A stretch of 54,189 bases of DNA from Dehalococcoidia bacterium (lineage in GTDB: Bacteria; Chloroflexota; Dehalococcoidia; Dehalococcoidales; RBG-16-60-22): positions 1 through 54,189 of the forward strand of contig DUFB01000068.1 of NCBI GenBank assembly GCA_011192005.1, written 5' to 3'. Position 1 is the first letter of the stretch. Each line of letters begins with the position of its first letter. The translations under genes were made by a program, and so were the position numbers. Shown here in pieces: positions 3,004 to 38,799 of the stretch. A model generated the notes under the pieces. It was not told the DNA's origin and did not search any database. It saw only the letters and a list, made by a program, of their open reading frames with translations.

Positions 3004-3543
3004 TTGTTCATCAGGATACTCCGTAAACTGGACTATTGGATTGGCAGTCTCAGTGAACACCTGTTGCTGATATGTGGAACCATGATATTATTGATGGCGT
3101 TTCTGGCAACCTTTGGTGTCATCATGCGACATATATTTGACCCCGAACCCTATTCGTACGAGTTCAGTTACATGTTCCTTCTTTTTAGTGGAGTCCTGGC
3201 CGTAGCTGGCGTGGAGAAGCTTGACCAGCACGTACGTAACGATCTCCTTGCCTCTCGTTTCCCCAATACCATGAAGATAATTATCATCAACATCATCTCA
3301 CCACTGCTGGCGATGGCTTTCTGCACTGTACTCATCTGGAAAAGCATGGATAATGCCCTTTATGCCCTGGACATCGGCCAGACCAGCCAATCTACCTGGC
3401 GGATACCCATAGCCCCAGTAAAATTCTTCATTCCGGCTGGCTTTATCCTGCTCCAGATTATTCTCTTCAGTAAATTTGTTAAGGGTATAAATCTACTTTT
3501 AAGAGGCGGCAAGGGCCCGGAGGAAGGCACTGACACCGGATAA
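3004..3543 (+). CDS. dctQ: TRAP transporter small permease
   Basis: Four TM segments, VIMRH..SYEFS, HVRNDLL; lies between dctP and dctM. Confidence 0.9.
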   Translation: MFIRILRKLDYWIGSLSEHLLLICGTMILLMAFLATFGVIMRHIFDPEPYSYEFSYMFLLFSGVLAVAGVEKLDQHVRNDLLASRFPNTMKIIIINIISPLLAMAFCTVLIWKSMDNALYALDIGQTSQSTWRIPIAPVKFFIPAGFILLQIILFSKFVKGINLLLRGGKGPEEGTDTG

Positions 3544-3567
3544 ATGACGTAAAGAAATTAGGTAACA

Positions 3568-4869
3568 ATGGATCCAACTCTCGCAGCCATAGTATGTGTT
3601 GTAGGTATGCTCTTCTTAATGATGATGGGCACACCGGTTATATATGCTCTGGGTTTTACCGCTTTCGTCGTGGCTCTGTTAGCCTTCGGTCCCTACAGTC
3701 TGGAAAAAATCGGCTGGACTACCTTCAATACCCTCTATAATATTAACTGGACGCCGCTCCCGATATTTGTACTCATGGCATGCCTGATTGCCGAAACGAG
3801 AATCGGCGAGGATATTTATAACGCTGCCCGTAAATGGCTTTCACGTATCCCCGGCGGCCTTATCGTAACCAGCATCTGGGGTGAAGCCGCCATGGCCGCG
3901 GCCATCGGTACCAGCACCGCCACCATCCTGGCGGTGGGCAAGGTAGCCGAGCCGGAGTTTGAACGCTACGGTTACGATAAGGGTTTAGCCATGGGCGGTT
4001 TGTGCTGCGGCGGTGTCCTGGGGCCCCTGATTCCGCCCAGCGCTGGTATGATTATCTACGGCGTCCTCTCGGAGACATCCATCGGACACCTTTTCATGGC
4101 CGGGATGGTGCCGGGTATACTGCTGGCACTGATGCTGGGGGGAGTTGCTGTTTTCATGTGCTGGCGGAATCCCAAGCTGGGTCCTTCGGTAGGCGGCGTC
4201 AGTTGGGGAGAACGAATCTCCTCCCTGAAAAAGGTCTGGCCGATATTCGTGGTCATGCTGTCGATACTCGGTTCAATCTACTTCGGGATAGCCTCGCCTA
4301 CCGAAGCCGCTGGAGTAGGCTGTGTGGTGGTGCTGATTATCGGCGTCGTCGTTTTCCGCCTGCGATGGACAGGACTGCGTCGGGCTTTGCTGGAAGCTGC
4401 CAAGATTAACGGCATGATTCTCTTCATGATGATAGGTGCCTGGTTATTCTCGTATGTTATCGGCAGCTCCGGAGTGGTCAGGACCGTCACCGGATTCGTC
4501 ACCGAATCAAGCCTGTCGCCCTGGCTGATCATTATCGCCATTAACGTCATGCTGCTGATTCTGGGATGCTTTATAGACGCCATCACCATCATGCTGCTGA
4601 CAGTACCCATATTCGTCCCTGTCATCGATGCATTGGGTTTCAACCCCGTCTGGTTCGGTGTTCTTTACGTGGTGAACATGCAGATAGGACTGATTACTCC
4701 GCCGATGGGACTTGAGCTGTTTATGATGAGGACGGCCTTCAACATCCCGGTGGATAAACTCCTGCGCGGAGTCCTGCCATTCCTGATTGTTCTCTTTATC
4801 TTCCTGGCTATCCTCATAGCTTTTCCGGAGATAAGCCTCTGGCTACCCGAGATGATGAGAACCAGATAA
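3568..4869 (+). CDS. dctM: TRAP transporter large permease
   Basis: Multi-TM with LGPLIPPS, LFMAGMVPG, SPTEAAG and IGLITPPMG. Confidence 0.95.
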   Translation: MDPTLAAIVCVVGMLFLMMMGTPVIYALGFTAFVVALLAFGPYSLEKIGWTTFNTLYNINWTPLPIFVLMACLIAETRIGEDIYNAARKWLSRIPGGLIVTSIWGEAAMAAAIGTSTATILAVGKVAEPEFERYGYDKGLAMGGLCCGGVLGPLIPPSAGMIIYGVLSETSIGHLFMAGMVPGILLALMLGGVAVFMCWRNPKLGPSVGGVSWGERISSLKKVWPIFVVMLSILGSIYFGIASPTEAAGVGCVVVLIIGVVVFRLRWTGLRRALLEAAKINGMILFMMIGAWLFSYVIGSSGVVRTVTGFVTESSLSPWLIIIAINVMLLILGCFIDAITIMLLTVPIFVPVIDALGFNPVWFGVLYVVNMQIGLITPPMGLELFMMRTAFNIPVDKLLRGVLPFLIVLFIFLAILIAFPEISLWLPEMMRTR

Positions 4870-5737: not shown

Positions 5738-6490
5738 ATGAATCAGACCAGATGGGATTATTCCGTATTCGATAAATTCAACTTTGAAAGAAAGCCGGTA
5801 GGCATCAAGTTCCTGCTAAACAGACCGGAAGGACTGGAACAGACGGATAAAATAATGCCTATCTGCCGGTTGTTTACAGAAGCGCAGACGGGACAGCCCT
5901 TTTATGCCACCAAAGATAACTTTTCCTGCGTTGACAGACTGATACTGGGAATGATCGACCCCGAGGCTTATATGGTTAGCGGGCAAATCGGCGCCAAGGA
6001 AAAGATATATCAGGAAGCACGGGCCAACAGCAGGATATATCACCATATCTATAAAATACCCAGAGATACCGTCAGGTATGTGGCTTTCTCCTCTCAGGAT
6101 AAACTTACTTTTGAACCAGACCTGCTGATTATTACCGCCAAGCCGTCCGATGCCGAAATCATATTCCGGGCTCTAAGCTACTCCATCGGTAAGCCGTTAA
6201 CATCAAAATTTACCCCGGTACTCATGTGTGCCTGGGTTTTTGGTTATCCGTATATCACCGGAGAACTGAACTACACCGTTACCGGAATCGGCTACGGCAT
6301 AAGAATGCAGAGAGTACTGCCCGAGGGCCTTTTCCTGATATCCGTACCGTATGATTTAATCCCGATGCTGATAGATAATTTAAAGGAAATGGAATGGGTT
6401 CTCCCGATGACCACGCTCAGCGAGGAAGACAGAAAAGTATTTTCTGCCAGGATAATGGAGGAAATACAGGAAGAATACAAAAACGGTTAA
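5738..6490 (+). CDS. DUF169 domain protein (tandem paralog)
   Basis: PVGIKF, ICRL, FSCV..LG, FEPDLLII, MCAW; AAGGAGG RBS. Confidence 0.82.
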   Translation: MNQTRWDYSVFDKFNFERKPVGIKFLLNRPEGLEQTDKIMPICRLFTEAQTGQPFYATKDNFSCVDRLILGMIDPEAYMVSGQIGAKEKIYQEARANSRIYHHIYKIPRDTVRYVAFSSQDKLTFEPDLLIITAKPSDAEIIFRALSYSIGKPLTSKFTPVLMCAWVFGYPYITGELNYTVTGIGYGIRMQRVLPEGLFLISVPYDLIPMLIDNLKEMEWVLPMTTLSEEDRKVFSARIMEEIQEEYKNG

Positions 6491-6523
6491 ACCACAGGAT
6501 AACAGGCCGGGTAAGGAGGAAAA

Positions 6524-7348
6524 ATGATCGGGAAAATCGTCATTGACGAGGTGAAGAAGCAAAGAATAATTGATAAAGCCGGTCATCTCGGGGCCGGAGA
6601 GGGAGTAAATTACGGAGCCTGAGCGCCGTCCTCATTCGCTTCAATATGCGAAGCCTTCAGGTCTGAAGGCATAGAGTTATTTACACCGGAAGTACAGGTA
6701 ATAATACTCCAGGGGTTGATGGGACTACATTCCGGTATAGCCTATACGGGAGTAGGCACTTGCGGCGGTGTTACCGGCAGCGCCTTTGCCGTCGCTTATG
6801 TCGTCGGCGTTACCGCCGAAGATATAGCCAAAAATCATCGCACTTTCATCGCTCCGTGCATCCCTGTCGTGGAGGATATCGTGGACAGGTTTGAGGAGAC
6901 GTACGGCGCCATAGATTGTCTTAGATTACGTTATAACCGTATCCAGCGTGCCTATGACTTTCTTGACCCCGACGCCGCGGTATACGAAGCGCTTTTTGCT
7001 ACCTCTCAAAGGCAAAAATGTGGAGTACTGGCGGACTGCTACGAGTGCGGGCGCGACCAGGGGATGCCCTCGGTCGGTGCGCGCTGGGGCGCGGAATCTA
7101 TTTGCGACTTATTAAATATGGAACCTGAAGAGCGGAAGAAGCTCCCACCGCATCTGGAAGGCTATGACATGGAAACACTCATGCCGAAGGTCCAGAAGGT
7201 CGCCGAACTGATGAAAGAACTGGGACTCGGGCGCCCTGACGAGAAGATATCCTGGCGGGAGTACCGGACACTCAAGCTGAAAGGTAAGAAGGGAGTTGAA
7301 GAAAGCAGGCCTTGCGGGGTCGATGCACCAAAGAAGGAGAAATATTAG
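6524..7348 (+). CDS. C_GCAxxG_C_C family redox protein, probable selenoprotein (UGA 6620-6622 read as Sec33)
   Basis: AAGGAGG RBS before ATG 6524. Reads MIGKIVIDE...NYGA-UGA-APSSFASICEAF..., in frame with ORF 6716-7348 (GTCGGVTG, GAIDC). The UGA falls at the family's first Cys. Confidence 0.8.
6653..6670 (+). promoter_or_regulatory. Candidate bacterial SECIS hairpin
   Basis: GCCTTCA-GGTC-TGAAGGC, a 7-bp stem with a G-starting loop 37 nt after the UGA. Contains CAGGTCTG, as in the E. coli fdhF SECIS apex. Confidence 0.55.
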
Positions 7349-32174: not shown

Positions 32175-33734
32175 ATGGAGATATTAATGAGACTCGGCAG
32201 GAAATTAAAAGAAAAGAAGATAGAAGATAAAGAAAGTAACCAGCCTCTTCAAGATGCGAAGAGTGAAAATTCATACGATACAGACGAAGAGGTGATAACC
32301 ATCGAACCAAACACGCTTCACCTTTGGAAGAACCCGAAGGCTGTGAAATTGGTCAGCTGGCTGTTAAGCCACAAAGACGCCCGGATAGACCCCGAAATCA
32401 ATTTGCAGAGCCGGGAAGGATACAACTACCGTACTGCCGACGATATCATGGAAACATCCGGCAAGACCACCTGGTCGATTCTGGAATCGCTGGCGGAAAA
32501 GAATGTCTTATTAAAAGACGACTTCGAGAGGATATTACTCACTCTCGACGGCTCTATTCAGCTAATCCCGGTGGAAAGGTGCCCCAATTGCGATTCTGCA
32601 CACCTGTCCCGCGGTAAAATGATCGAACACTTTGCCTGCGGACATGTCGGCTTTGAAGAAGACTTTGTATCGGGATTGAAGACGGTCTGTCCTAAATGCA
32701 AAAAGGAACTGAAGCTAATCGGCACAGACTACCGTAACCCGGGACTACGGTATACCTGCAAGAACTGCCAGGGAATCTTCCCGCTGCCGACGATTAAATA
32801 CCGCTGCCTGAAGACAGGAGAAATATACTCGCTGGAAGAACTGAACCATGTCTGGTTATATTCCTATCGCCTCAATGAAAACTGCCGCACACGACTAGAA
32901 TTCGAGCTGGAACCGAAAAAGAGGTTCGTGGACTATTTGTATAAACTGGGCTATAGCGTACAGGAGTCAATGAAACTCCAGGGAAAGTCCGGCGCCACCC
33001 ATACCATCGACCTGCTGGCGACGATGGACGACCCCATAGCCAGGCATACCGTGGCAATAGGCATACTTGCCGCCCCACAGGGTGAAGAGGCCGTAAATAT
33101 CGATTCCCTCTTCAGCCTGGATAGTAAGATTTACGATATAGGCATCAAACACAAGATTGTCCTGGCGGTGCCTAGGCTCGCGCCCGATGCGAAAAAATTC
33201 GCCGAAAGACAGGGCATCAGGGTTTACGGGCTGGAAGAACTGGGGGCTCTGTTATCAGGACAGACCGATGTTCCAACCCCGGCAAACCGGGAAACACAGG
33301 AAATTGCCGGAGAAAGCGAAATGGAGCCGGAATTATCCAAGCTCGGTCCCAAGGGTTTCCTGAAATATTTACTGGAGAAAAAGGGCTACATGGTCACCGA
33401 AAACGCCAGAGTTACCGGCAGGTCCGGAGTCGAACATACGCTGGAACTCTACGCCCAGAAAGATGACGGTATTACCTCACACCAGGTAGCAGCCTGCGTT
33501 ATACTCAGCGGGCACAACGACGGTAACGGGGTGAATGAAGTTGTCCAGTTTGATACCGCTGCCTATGATGCCGGGATAACTGATAAGGTAATCATTACCA
33601 TCCCCAGACTCAGTAAAGCCGCCAAGCAGTTTGCCGAATATCAACACATCAAAGTACTTGAGGCAAAAGACCTGATTGAGTTTTCCAATCAGTTCCTGGA
33701 TTCGAAGACGAATACAAACAACAAAGTAAAATAG
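32175..33734 (+). CDS. TackOD1-like multi-zinc-ribbon protein with two restriction-endonuclease-fold (Mrr-like) domains
   Basis: CPNC, HFACGH, CPKC, GTDY, CKNC; repeated G(K/R)SG..HT(I/L)(D/E)L ... P.L...A..FAE modules. Confidence 0.6.
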   Translation: MEILMRLGRKLKEKKIEDKESNQPLQDAKSENSYDTDEEVITIEPNTLHLWKNPKAVKLVSWLLSHKDARIDPEINLQSREGYNYRTADDIMETSGKTTWSILESLAEKNVLLKDDFERILLTLDGSIQLIPVERCPNCDSAHLSRGKMIEHFACGHVGFEEDFVSGLKTVCPKCKKELKLIGTDYRNPGLRYTCKNCQGIFPLPTIKYRCLKTGEIYSLEELNHVWLYSYRLNENCRTRLEFELEPKKRFVDYLYKLGYSVQESMKLQGKSGATHTIDLLATMDDPIARHTVAIGILAAPQGEEAVNIDSLFSLDSKIYDIGIKHKIVLAVPRLAPDAKKFAERQGIRVYGLEELGALLSGQTDVPTPANRETQEIAGESEMEPELSKLGPKGFLKYLLEKKGYMVTENARVTGRSGVEHTLELYAQKDDGITSHQVAACVILSGHNDGNGVNEVVQFDTAAYDAGITDKVIITIPRLSKAAKQFAEYQHIKVLEAKDLIEFSNQFLDSKTNTNNKVK

Positions 33735-35320: not shown

Positions 35321-36181
35321 TCAGTAAACGAAGCGCACCACCAGATACCCGATGAGCGATGTAAAAGCAATAGGCGGCAGTGCCGGCATTGGTTTACCCT
35401 TGAGCCAGATTAGCTGAATCAGGTATGCACTCATCAAGCCAGCCAGGGCAAATGCCCCTATTATAATCGCGCTGGGTAATCCCGTCTGGTAAAAGACAGA
35501 TACGGCCAGCATCAGAGGAAACCCGATATCACCCCCGCCTAGTATGGATTGCTCGCGTTCCTCTGATTTCTTCTCAGATAACTCACCAACTTTCACATCG
35601 TGTAGCTTAGCCGTCCAGTCCCGCAGTTTCTTGGGGAAAATAAAGGCGGGCAGACTCTCGGATTCGGAAAGACGGTCGGCCATCCAGACCATGAAGCCGA
35701 ACCTTACCGCGACGACGTCATAAACGGCGATAATCAGCATAAAAATCATGAACGTCAGGGGAGAAAACAGATAACCGAAAACCGAGCCGGCCCCGGCGAT
35801 GGTAACCAGCAGTAAAATATTGTGAAGCCATATTCTTGCCCAGAGCAGCCAGGCGATACCCCCGATAACCGCCAGGGTATAGGATGCCCACATAGGTAAA
35901 GAAAAGCCCGATATGATGAGCACGCCCCAGGCGAACATGAGAGCGAATAACACCCGGAAAACCAGGCGCAGTTTGCCGAGAGGTATAAAAAAGAGAATCA
36001 GCGCTATAACGATTACAACGCCGAAAAAATAGCCGATGATAGGCCCGATGGAGATGTCCGGTGAAACGAAACCCTGCTCCTCGAAATATGTCTCACCCTG
36101 CCGGGCATTAGCCAGCGCCAGGACCAGCGCCAGCACCATGACCAGGGCGCTCCAGAAAAGGGGACTCAGCTTAGATTTCAT
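35321..36181 (-). CDS. Presenilin/signal-peptide-peptidase-like intramembrane aspartyl protease
   Basis: Polytopic membrane protein with YD (IAVYD), GxGD (LGGGD) and PALP motifs in the canonical order. Confidence 0.88.
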   Translation of the reverse strand: MKSKLSPLFWSALVMVLALVLALANARQGETYFEEQGFVSPDISIGPIIGYFFGVVIVIALILFFIPLGKLRLVFRVLFALMFAWGVLIISGFSLPMWASYTLAVIGGIAWLLWARIWLHNILLLVTIAGAGSVFGYLFSPLTFMIFMLIIAVYDVVAVRFGFMVWMADRLSESESLPAFIFPKKLRDWTAKLHDVKVGELSEKKSEEREQSILGGGDIGFPLMLAVSVFYQTGLPSAIIIGAFALAGLMSAYLIQLIWLKGKPMPALPPIAFTSLIGYLVVRFVY

Positions 36182-36250
36182 GAATAAATAACGTCCGCGG
36201 GTTTCTCCCCATTATAGGTAAGGAGACCACACGAAAGCAACGCGGTATCC

Positions 36251-36279
36251 TTGACACGTAATAGGCACTATGCTAATTT
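36251..36279 (+). promoter_or_regulatory. Sigma70-type promoter of the GrdB-like gene
   Basis: TTGACA-N17-TAATTT with a TGn extension. Confidence 0.5.
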
Positions 36280-36340
36280 ACCTTTATAAATCCCCCTGAA
36301 ATAAATCACAAGCAACATTTAACACGAAGGGAGACGACAG

Positions 36341-37567
36341 ATGGTCCGCATGGAAGCTTTAAGTCCGGAAGAGCGAGAGTTGATGATAAGGCTCCCCACC
36401 CCCTCTTTTGACACCAACCCCTGGGTCACCGCTCCGCCTCTGGAAAAAGTCCGCCTGGCTATCATCACCACGGCCGGACTGCACACCCGGAACGACCGCC
36501 CTTTCCAGATTGACCCCAACGATTTCTACCGCGTTATACCGGGTGACGTTCAGGCTAACGACCTGGTGATGTCCCACCTGGCTGCCAGCTTCGACCGCAG
36601 CGGCTACCAGCGCGACTGGAACGTGGTCTTCCCCCTCGACCGGCTGCGGGAGATGGTATCTGAAGGTATTATCAGCAGCTTGGCATCTTTTCATTACTCG
36701 GTCAGCGCCGTGCACACCAAGGAAGAGTTCGATGCTCCGACGCGGGAAATCGCCCGTCTCCTGAAAAAGGATAACGTCAACGCCGCCCTGCTCTTACCCG
36801 TCTGACCGGGCTGTACGTCCGCCGTTGGCGTACTGGCTCATTATATCGAGGATGAGGGTGTAGCCACCACCGGTATCAGTCTTATCCGGCCCCACACGGA
36901 GGTTATCAAGCCGCCGCGGGCTCTCTGGGTGTCTTTCCAGCTCGGTCATCCCCTGGGCGCCCCGAACGACCCTGATTTTCAGAGAAAGGTATTGATAGCC
37001 ACTTTCGAGTTGTTCAAGGCACCCTCCGGACCGGTGCTGGAGGATTTCCCCGAAGATGAACCAGAGAACGATGAAATAACCATGCTGGCATGCCCGGTGA
37101 ACTTCGCCCGTAATATAGATAGCAGTAGAGAGACCGACGCGAAGAAGGTAGCCTTCCGGAGAGAAATGACCGCGATGCGTCCGTGGTACGATATGGCCGT
37201 CACCAAAAGAAAACGCACCACCGTGGGCGCCAGCTGTATCGACATCGAAAAGCTGGGCGACTTTATCTACGCCTTCCTGGAGGGTAACGAACCGGAGAAC
37301 CCCCGCAATGACGTACCCCTTTCGAATACGCTGAAACTGGCCGTCGAAGACCTGAAGTCATACTACATCGAAGGGATTACGGCACAGCCGGGCCAGGAAG
37401 ATGCCTCAAGCAAGTTGCTCCAGAACTGGTTCTGGGACGAGACGGTTGGCGGCAAAATCCTTCTGGATTTAAAGAAAGTATGCGAGGCAAGTCCGGATAA
37501 AATGATGAGCTTGATCGGCAGTCATTTTATCGTCCCCGGGGATGTCGCTCGACGGCAGACCGCCTGA
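36341..37567 (+). CDS. GrdB/PrdB-like reductase selenoprotein B family protein with C-terminal extension (UGA 36803-36805 read as Sec155)
   Basis: RLAIITTAGLH, DWNVVFPLDRLRE, LLLPV-UGA-PGC (UxxC). Continues in frame through IEDEGVATT..KPPRALWVSFQLGHPLG into ORF 36929-37567; 408 aa in total. Confidence 0.85.
36808..36839 (+). promoter_or_regulatory. Candidate SECIS hairpin
   Basis: GTACGTC-CGCCGTT-GGCGTAC stem with a GGGC/GCTC lower stem, just 3' of the UGA. Confidence 0.45.
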
Positions 37568-37587
37568 GGAAAAAGTTTATTCGGGTA

Positions 37588-38799
37588 TTATCTTACCTTA
37601 ACCCTGCCCCCGCATTTGGTACAGAGAACTTCGGGGTCAGGGAAGTTGGGGGGTATTTTCCACCTGGTCCCGCAGGAGCATTGCACAATACGGTAATCGT
37701 TCAGCTTCAGCATCACGTCCTCCACCTCTCTCTTACGGCTAATCTCCTCACGGGTCGACTTTTTCTCCTCGGGAGAAGCCTCCCGCAAGCCCACTGCACC
37801 GGCGGTATATTGCGTTGCCTGCGAGATAACACTTCTGCCCCCGGGGTGGACCTGACGGTAAGCCCGGTCATATTCAGCGAAAGAGGCACCGCCAGCCATG
37901 GAACGTAAGATGCGTATTCTCTCGGCTACGGGTGGATGGGTGCTGGTGGCGTTCGAAAGGCTCATGCCCTTCGTGCGAAAAGGATTGATAATATACATCG
38001 GTGCCGTGGCTTTGTTGGCGGTTTTAAGCTCTACCGTCGAGCCGGATATTTTTTCCAGAGCCGATGCCAGCCCCTCAGGATACCTGGTATACAACGCCGA
38101 AGAGGCGTCAGCCAGGTATTCCCTCTTCCTCGAAATGGCATAATATATCAACTGCGCCAGGATGGGGGCCAGAATCATGAAGACGATACCAACGATCAAG
38201 ATAATCAATTGTGCCTGACCGCCTCCGCCTCTGGCAGAACTGCGGGAGCGTCCCATGCTGCCGAAGATGAGCAATCTGGACACATACCATGCCAGTATCA
38301 CGATTGTCCCCAGCATGACGGCGGTGATAGCCATGAGCAGAACATCACGGTTTTTTATGTGCGCCAGCTCGTGGCCAATGACCCCCTGGAGCTCGTCACG
38401 GTTGAGCTTTTCCAGCAGTCCGGTGGTGATAGCCACCGAAGCTTTACTGGGGTCACGCCCGGTGGCGAATGCATTCATGGCTTTATCGTCGATGATATAG
38501 ACATCCGGCATCTTTTCCAGTCCCGAGGCTATTTTCATCTCCTCGACGACGTTATAGAGACGGGGATAATCATTGGGACCGATTTTCTTGGCTCTGGCCA
38601 AAGAAAGCAAGATATTATCGCCGCTGTAGAAAGCAATCAGGGTCATGATAAACCAGATAACCAGGGCAATAAATAATCCGGCAAGGCCGTTTTCAAATAT
38701 ATAAAATCCTAGAAAATAACCGATTGCCAGCAGCATTACCGCCATTACGGTTACCAGTATAATAGACCTGGTTCTATTAGCCCGAATTTGCTCCCACAT
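37588..38799 (-). CDS. htpX: M48 family zinc metalloprotease (HtpX-like) with C-terminal zinc ribbon
   Basis: NAFATG, HELAH, SRKREYLAD, STHPP; tail CSC...CTKC; follows lemA. Confidence 0.9.
   Translation of the reverse strand: MWEQIRANRTRSIILVTVMAVMLLAIGYFLGFYIFENGLAGLFIALVIWFIMTLIAFYSGDNILLSLARAKKIGPNDYPRLYNVVEEMKIASGLEKMPDVYIIDDKAMNAFATGRDPSKASVAITTGLLEKLNRDELQGVIGHELAHIKNRDVLLMAITAVMLGTIVILAWYVSRLLIFGSMGRSRSSARGGGGQAQLIILIVGIVFMILAPILAQLIYYAISRKREYLADASSALYTRYPEGLASALEKISGSTVELKTANKATAPMYIINPFRTKGMSLSNATSTHPPVAERIRILRSMAGGASFAEYDRAYRQVHPGGRSVISQATQYTAGAVGLREASPEEKKSTREEISRKREVEDVMLKLNDYRIVQCSCGTRWKIPPNFPDPEVLCTKCGGRVKVR

Follow-up and report, generated by a model that had tools for sequence, protein, structure and literature searches.

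A PrdB-like two-domain gene with an in-frame UGA codon in a Dehalococcoidia genome, a probable stand-alone selenoprotein

Introduction

Two open reading frames (ORFs) on the plus strand of a Dehalococcoidia contig raise the question of whether they are two genes or one. They lie at 36341..36805 (154 amino acids, aa) and 36929..37567 (212 aa) of a 54,189-nucleotide (nt) stretch of DNA (contig DUFB01000068.1, assembly GCA_011192005.1; the whole stretch at its full length is called the window hereafter), and their offset of 588 nt places them in a common frame. A sequence-only reading of this DNA had claimed that the two ORFs are separated solely by a UGA in the context PV-U-PGC, U being selenocysteine (Sec), and that the product is a hidden, stand-alone seleno-reductase fused to an unknown C-terminal domain. 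PrdB of clostridial D-proline reductase carries a Sec-x-x-Cys motif of this type. If the ORFs are one gene, a second question follows, i.e., whether the protein works alone or with GrdA and a pyruvoyl proprotein of the PrdA or GrdE type, partners on which its characterised relatives depend. Here, we report that 36341-37567, as judged from its sequence and that of its relatives, is almost certainly one real selenoprotein gene of a PrdB-like two-domain family and not two genes. Our overall reading, a single 408-residue selenoprotein that would act as a stand-alone UxxC reductase with a PrdB-type mechanism, is held with rather more belief than doubt.

Results

One gene read through a UGA codon

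With TGA translated as Sec, the frame runs open through 408 codons and its sole internal TGA encodes U155 in the context LLLPV-U-PGCTSAV, which bears out the joining of the two ORFs in the sequence-only reading. The extent of the gene is backed by end-to-end alignment of Cys homologs of 379-419 aa and by a common end point in the homologs. From the TGA to the start of the second ORF (GTG at 36929) lie 41 codons that are open and conserved.

The UGA is kept at this very codon among the relatives. We collected 48 related genome loci, from Dehalococcoidia/Dehalococcoidales, Desulfobacterota, Alphaproteobacteria, one Acidobacteriota, and other Chloroflexota; two of them (L050, L065) stop short of the site, and the aligned codon is TGA in all 46 that reach it. 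The same codon was found in 34/34 places of an even class-level sample, chosen from 70 weak GRDB places outside the host genome and spread over 32 genomes. Contigs of four independent public runs retain the TGA, and a variant contig (run X4) that differs at 26 of 373 nt has zero changes in 36797-36846, a 50-nt stretch comprising the TGA and the hairpin described below.

Where the reading frame of a homolog is uninterrupted, Cys takes the place of Sec, a pairing that the sequence-only reading had proposed looking for. The window protein was aligned with 17 full-length homologs, 2 from a clustered-protein search and 15 from a representative search (left out were P0003, 348 aa and without the Sec region; P0013, 371 aa with an odd N-terminus and VCPGCT; P0130; and P0259). 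All 17 have Cys at residue 155, with Pro156 and Cys158 invariant as well. Across the merged alignment of the family, Sec/Cys at residue 155 and Cys158 are each found in 74/74 members. The closeness of the two forms is illustrated by the natural Cys homolog P0004, which is 59% identical to the window protein.

Gene callers split most relatives at the Sec codon. Among the best 120 clusters in the search of 5.8 billion clustered proteins, 116 are pieces of 228-255 aa that correspond to the last 56-61% of the query, and only 4 are longer; three of these (P0004, P0006, P0013) read SPV-C-PGCT opposite PV-U-PGCT in the window. Of the 150 matches listed from the representative search, most start somewhere in residues 158-205 of the query, three stop right at residue 154, and 17 span 367-419 aa. 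Databases either halve the gene or label it D-proline/glycine reductase subunit B.

A genome lacking Sec machinery had been named by the sequence-only reading as grounds for giving up the selenoprotein. The host genome has SelA (564 bits), SelB (353.5 bits), SelD (400.7 bits), and tRNA-Sec (73.4 bits), all above their curated cut-offs. As a side observation, the selD gene at host contig C69:20620-21546 (-) holds one in-frame TGA, and on this sequence the host selenophosphate synthetase is probably itself a selenoprotein.

A covarying hairpin behind the UGA

A seven-pair hairpin stands at +15 to +31 nt from the UGA, its loop beginning 21 nt past the U of UGA. We compared 48 nt from the TGA, ungapped, in 57 sequences (the window, its paralog in the host, 46 loci, and 9 class-sample loci). 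Columns 15-21 and 25-31 form standard pairs in 89.8% of the cells as compared with 80.4% in shuffled alignments, and double-change cells number 32 as compared with 8.6 (0/500 shuffles as high in either case). When the 3' partner was slid by 1-3 columns as a control, just 32-52% pairing was left. Pair 16-30 is CG in 31 sequences, AU in 13, UA in 6, GC in 2, and GU in 1, while pair 19-27 is GC in 47 and AU in 8; in the loop G22-U23-N24, G22 is invariant and U23 reaches at least 90%. These positions belong to codons 160 and 164, and the protein sequence there hence covaries at the RNA level. The element has the features of a selenocysteine insertion sequence (SECIS), i.e., a stem-loop shortly 3' of the UGA with a G/U apical loop, and no Rfam family reached the gathering threshold anywhere in the window (0 matches).

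The N-terminal domain and its relation to PrdB and GrdB

The best NCBIfam match of the protein is PrdB (TIGR04483; E 1.9e-28), at 99.6 bits, far below the equivalog cut-off of 300. GrdF, GrdH, TIGR01918, and TIGR01917 follow in the ranking, and the GrdB-type models also score below their cut-offs (46.9 against 65.45 for TIGR01918, 36.6 against 602 for TIGR01917, 55.9 against 800 for NF040794, and 56.1 against 775 for NF040795); they were matched just at positions ~199-410 and not over their full length. The GRDB-family hidden Markov model, which the sequence-only reading had put forward as the search to run, gives the sole Pfam match (PF07355; E 2e-9; residues 15-151 aligned to 203-344 of the 347 model positions) with 37.6 bits, above its cut-off of 22. 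Three true Dehalococcoidia GrdB proteins, whose genes stand beside GrdE, align over residues 12-216 with 25-27% identity, Sec on Sec. From these profiles and alignments, we take the N-terminal domain to be a homolog of full-length PrdB and, in GrdB, of the C-terminal half; residues ~8-245 would make up a complete PrdB-like domain, and ~163 residues are extra.

Conservation extends beyond the redox motif. Of the 74 members, 73-74 share D85, N94, and R193; D85 and N94 are identical in those true GrdB alignments (one or two) that are shown in full, and R193 stands opposite Arg in two. In the AlphaFold2 (AF2) model, a strand at residues 148-152 leads into U155 and then into a helix at 158-171, and the predicted local distance difference test (pLDDT) of the N-terminal domain is mostly 86-98. 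A PDB sequence search with the family profile returned nothing below E 0.36.

A helical C-terminal domain shared by the family

AF2 folds the full protein (18-row alignment) into one compact two-domain model with pLDDT 89.7 and a predicted template modelling score (pTM) of 0.90; when the C-terminal 164 residues were folded alone (60 rows), pLDDT was 92.0 and pTM 0.85. The modelled C-terminal domain has seven helices. It gave no Pfam match at E <= 1, and in structure searches its best Foldseek hit in the PDB was at E 2.0 and its best VIA-align score Z 4.6, with no chain at Z >= 5. For the full model, the best Foldseek PDB hit was at E 0.025 with a template modelling score of 0.17, and VIA-align gave Z <= 8.2 for generic Rossmann-like, LacI, and short-chain dehydrogenase/reductase folds over residues 32-243, which is at noise level. 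Identity with GrdE/PrdA (PF09338) was considered as a candidate for this domain and rejected: besides the empty Pfam search, the family profile against four Dehalococcoidia GrdE proteins reached an hhalign probability of 6.4%.

The domain is well conserved in the 74 members, with E275 in 73, G296 in 72, D337 in 73, Y342 in 71, E344 in 71, W363 in 73, and T368 in 72; position 365 (W365 in the window protein) is aromatic and belongs to the same set conserved in 71-73/74. In the linker before it, residue 251 is Cys in 65 members, Ser in 7 (exactly the basal clade), and another residue in 2, and residue 250 is A/S/T/V in 72/74. The motifs RPWYD, RTTVG, EDLKSYYIE, AQPG, and WFWDET, quoted for this region by the sequence-only reading, are all found in the translated 408-aa protein. 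Its description of about 170 extra residues fused as an unknown domain holds in that ~163 residues are extra and match neither Pfam nor solved structures; the wording of a local fusion has to be corrected because the architecture is standard in a large family. On the strength of the models and the alignment, the protein is predicted to end in a seven-helix domain without a recognised fold that is conserved family-wide.

Family size, tree, and paralogs

The clustered-protein search gave 1527 clusters at 90% identity, and 2244 matches (E <= 0.001) came from the exhaustive search among representatives at 50% identity. A GRDB match was found in 56 of 151 genomes of the class; 38 of them, the host included, have weak matches alone, to the last 130-165 model positions. 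Of the 34 weak places fetched, 9 align over both domains and run 234-291 codons past the Sec, and 25 end after 86-131 codons. As an observation on the latter, all 25 short forms (loci among L070-L103), which have the size of PrdB and fall into two or more clades (UPDCC; UP[VIL]CHQ[ST]/UxxCNRS), have TGA at the site and the hairpin in an unchanged register, one example being CCAGUCC-GUG-GGACUGG. With the C-terminal domain as a single-sequence query, matches were obtained in 14/151 class genomes, always just 3' of a weak GRDB match except in a contig-end fragment (G077); this number is an undercount because the domain diverges fast.

In a quick maximum-likelihood tree of the N-terminal domain (102 rows, true GrdB as outgroup), the 74 two-domain sequences stand on one side of a branch and the short forms make up two starred clades. 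Sec and Cys forms interleave, with 6-7 changes of which at least three are forced by starred branches. The phyla are mixed as well, Desulfobacterota and one Acidobacteriota sequence being nested among Dehalococcoidia. L018, L019, and L033 form a group with the window gene (99*).

The host has a paralog on contig C44 at ~5888-7100 (-), with FPS-U-PGCTRAVG, 66% identity in the C-terminal domain, and its TGA and hairpin at L002:1444-1491 (-). The relative closest to the paralog, L035, immediately follows the genes of a molybdopterin oxidoreductase and a 4Fe-4S dicluster protein, all on one strand; C44 is too short to show whether the paralog does likewise. PrdB-like genes are multi-copy elsewhere, e.g., in the alphaproteobacterial genome G003 (locus L051), which has 7 GRDB-type matches, two of them adjacent (C55:118023-119607 (-)). 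The Dehalococcoidia genome G065 shows three GRDB-type genes in tandem at C1:92927-97622 (-). Dehalococcoidia of marine sediments have genes of the window type, and a genome often has several of them.

Partner genes

Neither PrdA/GrdE (PF09338) nor GrdA (PF04723) gave a match at E <= 1 in the host genome; please note that this genome is 79.6% complete. This is in keeping with the sequence-only reading, which had seen no partner genes nearby and had suggested a genome-wide look for prdA, grdE, and grdA. PF09338 was likewise found in 0/5 of the other carrier genomes (3.6-6.0 Mb, with 1-7 GRDB-type matches each) and in 0/38 of the class genomes that have weak half-length GRDB matches alone. As a positive control, it was found in 18/151 class genomes, all 18 of which have strong full-length-type GRDB matches, often adjacent (the strong match of G017 is clipped by a contig end).

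The neighbourhoods point to no partner either. ORF clustering around 47 loci gave no neighbour family beyond close relatives, the maximum being 11/47 and all but one of these Dehalococcoidia-type; the widely common clusters were just the two gene halves and overlapping spurious ORFs. When 45 flanking proteins from 18 diverse loci, of 115 listed, were scanned against Pfam, the result was a heterogeneous set with no PrdA/GrdE, GrdA, or thioredoxin reductase. It is quite likely, judging by these gene contents, that the window protein acts without PrdA/GrdE.

Two observations on GrdE itself were made along the way. The genomes G081, G025, G107, G125, and G142 have 7-10 PF09338 genes each together with several true GrdB, i.e., a large expansion of the glycine/betaine-reductase type. 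In the four Dehalococcoidia GrdE proteins read, Asn-Cys occurs in L066 alone at the place that we take to be the cleavage site.

Features of the locus

The features of the gene are collected in Table 1. As the sequence-only reading had described, the locus lies between a divergent signal-peptide-peptidase/presenilin-type gene at 35321-36181 (-) upstream and a convergent M48 (HtpX-like) peptidase gene at 37588-38799 (-) downstream, the latter followed by LemA. A promoter/terminator scan of 36100-37700 gave 0 promoter-like sites and 1 terminator-like site, which is intragenic, on the minus strand, and within shuffle expectation; ARAGORN found no tRNA in the entire window. Elsewhere in the window, 32175-33734 (+) encodes a 519-aa protein in which a TackOD1 domain (E 3.8e-37) is joined to a zinc ribbon and a restriction endonuclease domain of the Mrr type.

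Table 1. Positions of the predicted features of the selenoprotein gene in the window
Feature	Position	Strand	Description and basis
Shine-Dalgarno-like AAGGGAG	36327..36333	+	7 nt 5' of the ATG; direct sequence reading
Whole selenoprotein gene (predicted)	36341..37567	+	1227 nt; 408 codons, then stop TGA 37565-37567; open with TGA = U
PrdB/GrdB-like alpha/beta domain	36434..37009	+	Residues 32-223, matching TIGR04483 positions 25-216 of 238
UGA read as selenocysteine 155 (predicted)	36803..36805	+	First residue of the U-P-G-C158 redox motif; TGA conservation, Cys homologs
SECIS-like hairpin	36817..36833	+	7 pairs, 36817-36823 with 36827-36833; apical loop GUU 36824-36826; covariation
Interdomain linker	37061..37150	+	Residues 241-270, with Cys251 (37091-37093); pLDDT 64, 52, and 66 in three 10-residue blocks
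Family-specific all-helical C-terminal domain (modelled)	37121..37564	+	Residues ~261-408, seven helices; AF2, conservation

The family in the literature

Proteins of this kind have been in print for some time. In the Sargasso Sea, a "Proline reductase PrdB" family with UxxC and pfam07355 ranked third in abundance among selenoprotein families, at 42 sequences (Zhang, Fomenko and Gladyshev 2005; PMC1088965), and in the Global Ocean Sampling (GOS) data "Proline reductase PrdB", with 235 Sec and 110 Cys sequences, was the seventh commonest selenoprotein (Zhang and Gladyshev 2008; PMC2398784). The Sargasso supplement contains Sec-containing ORFs with PV-u-PxCTRAVG, PPRA, RPWY, RTTVG, AQPG, and WFWxET, "RTTVG" occurring 13 times, and also short forms of PrdB size, e.g., with u-GLCNQT (PMC1088965). 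The Olavius delta-1 symbiont is credited with five "PrdB" copies and no GrdA or GrdB (PMC1976440), and "PrdB" has been recorded in Anaeromyxobacter and Geobacter uraniireducens (PMC1794560). The Joint Genome Institute (JGI) label for several homologs is "D-proline reductase (dithiol) PrdB". The word "hidden" in the sequence-only reading is therefore right as far as the splitting by gene callers goes, but Sec members with the same motifs have been in print since 2005 (PMC1088965 supplement).

Our literature search, in which subscription journals were thinly covered, returned no text that separates this family from true PrdB, notes its C-terminal domain or missing PrdA, or assigns it a function. 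On its sequence, the window gene is a further member of a known, abundant, uncharacterised selenoprotein family, for which the name proline reductase subunit B is probably wrong.

Discussion

A stand-alone UxxC reductase

Judged by its homologies, the protein is most likely a stand-alone Sec/Cys (UxxC) reductase. The stand-alone seleno-reductase of the sequence-only reading is supported as far as sequence analysis goes; it stays an inference, with no conserved neighbourhood that points to a substrate. In such an enzyme, SelB and tRNA-Sec would decode the UGA as Sec155 with the aid of the hairpin 15-31 nt downstream. The Sec155 selenolate may then attack a small substrate that bears a carboxylate and sits between the two domains, and reductive cleavage of a C-X bond would follow, as homology suggests; Cys158 would resolve the Se adduct to a selenenyl-sulfide, which a thiol system such as thioredoxin could re-reduce. 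The same outline, i.e., selenolate attack, Cys resolution to Se-S, and dithiol re-reduction, has been given for PrdB/GrdB in a published account (PMC13188914). By this analogy, reductive C-X cleavage of the PrdB type rather than plain disulfide exchange comes out at slightly short of an even chance. With no carbonyl-bearing partner, either the substrate has no need of a Schiff base, or disulfide exchange alone takes place, or the protein supplies the function itself.

Several points weigh against this reading as a whole. The 25-27% identity to characterised-type GrdB and equivalog cut-offs missed by far mean that the chemistry may differ, and a weak resemblance to glutaredoxins over a beta-strand, CPxC, and a helix (E 0.37-0.6 in the PDB sequence search) would suit plain thiol-disulfide exchange equally. 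The branch that unites the two-domain family in our quick tree has a Shimodaira-Hasegawa-like approximate likelihood ratio test (SH-aLRT) value of 86 and is unstarred. At the RNA level, folding 36795-36880 as a single sequence gives no advantage over shuffles (z 0.24), RNAalifold alone recovers 3/7 pairs, and the hairpin is short, lies in coding sequence, and overlaps the conserved codons for A-V-G, while kinship among the sequences inflates the shuffle tests. With a host genome that is 79.6% complete, the absence of prdA/grdE means that they were not found and is not proof.

Other readings

Disulfide exchange alone leads to the alternative that we consider a minority view with some real weight, namely that the protein is a general thiol/selenol-disulfide oxidoreductase, a thioredoxin- or glutaredoxin-like carrier on a Rossmann-like scaffold that would reduce peroxides or the disulfides of proteins or low-molecular-weight compounds. 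The position of UxxC at a strand-to-helix junction (strand 148-152, helix 158-171) fits a thiol-disulfide oxidoreductase, the family profile's only PDB sequence matches near the motif are those to glutaredoxin/thioltransferase CPxC, and the lack of partner or substrate-pathway neighbours among those found is consistent with a general role. Selenoproteome papers also class "proline reductase" with thiol-based oxidoreductase homologs (PMC1794560; PMC1088965 Table 3). However, the glutaredoxin-type matches are not significant, and the homology to PrdB/GrdB covers the entire domain (residues 32-223), well beyond the motif. D85, N94, and R193 are remote from UxxC and yet conserved, D85 and N94 being identical in the true GrdB alignments shown, and the large conserved extra domain with its invariant acidic and aromatic residues suggests a specific ligand.

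An improbable variant would make the protein a self-contained, one-gene Stickland-type reductase in which the helical C-terminal domain replaces PrdA/GrdE. Self-cleavage at A250/C251 would leave an N-terminal pyruvoyl group on an ~18 kDa subunit, facing Sec155 of an ~27 kDa subunit. The idea comes from the Cys/Ser pattern at residue 251 after a small residue. A pyruvoyl precursor can accept Ser in place of Cys, which a redox relay cannot. If this were true, the substrate would be an amine-bearing carboxylate abundant in sea water and sediments.

We regard it as very unlikely that the protein is a genuine PrdB (or GrdB-type) subunit whose PrdA/GrdE partner lies in the unassembled fifth of the genome. 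PrdB is the best family match, JGI gives several homologs that name, and a genome that is 79.6% complete leaves room for a missing gene; against this, a score of 99.6 bits faces a cut-off of 300, and 408 aa with a 163-residue extra domain face a model of 238 positions. PF09338 was not found in the host, in 5/5 carriers, or in the 38 class genomes with weak GRDB matches, whereas it was found in the 18 with true GrdB, and no PrdA-like neighbour is seen among the 45 flanking proteins at 18 loci. Two genes or a pseudogene, with the TGA a true stop and 36929-37567 translated separately or never, is hardly credible: standard ORF calling does yield two ORFs and public gene calls list the halves separately, but the position of the TGA is unchanged across phyla (46/46 and 34/34), Cys stands at the site in 17/17 uninterrupted homologs, the 41 codons to the GTG are open and conserved, the hairpin 3' of the TGA covaries, and a single fold in the AF2 model takes in both halves, the helix that follows UxxC being part of the N-terminal domain.

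For the stand-alone UxxC reductase that we prefer, the consequences are mainly in annotation. Treating the family as an abundant, PrdA-independent selenoenzyme in its own right corrects metabolic reconstructions, in that its presence is no evidence for Stickland proline reduction here. For the window alone the outcome is an ordinary one, a further family member correctly joined.

Comparison with known systems

PrdB (TIGR04483) is the closest known relative. The window protein shares homology across nearly its entire length and the Sec-x-x-Cys motif, which is given as UXXC in Table 3 of PMC1088965. It differs in a score that is one third of the cut-off, in a 163-residue extra helical domain, in a length of 408 aa as opposed to a subunit of ~240 residues, in a host genome without detected PrdA (PF09338), and in a locus without the prd operon context. 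With GrdB/GrdF/GrdH (PF07355, TIGR01917/01918, NF040794/5), it shares the C-terminal part of the models, Sec aligned to Sec, whereas the N-terminal ~200 residues of GrdB are missing. The motif is U-P-G-C-T-S in the window protein and U-G-T-x-T-R-[CS] in the three true GrdB genes. True GrdB genes of the class adjoin GrdE (e.g., G029:C3 2122-3159 beside 3199-4458), in contrast to the window gene, which has no adjacent GrdE and no detected GrdA in its genome.

The short orphan PrdB-like selenoproteins of Dehalococcoidia (UPDCC, UP[VIL]CHQ[ST], UxxCNRS) are alike in the N-terminal domain, the Sec site, the hairpin register, and genomes without PF09338; they end 86-131 codons past the Sec as compared with 234-291 in the two-domain form, and they fall in separate starred clades. 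The marine-survey "Proline reductase PrdB" agrees with the window protein in UxxC, pfam07355, the order of motifs, and ~240 residues past the Sec, by inspection of the supplement and not by alignment. The surveys treat the family as D-proline reductase subunit B, mixed with short forms, and their accessible portions make no mention of the extra domain or the missing PrdA. The window copy, for its part, comes from a Dehalococcoidales-type genome that is found in marine sediment metagenomes.

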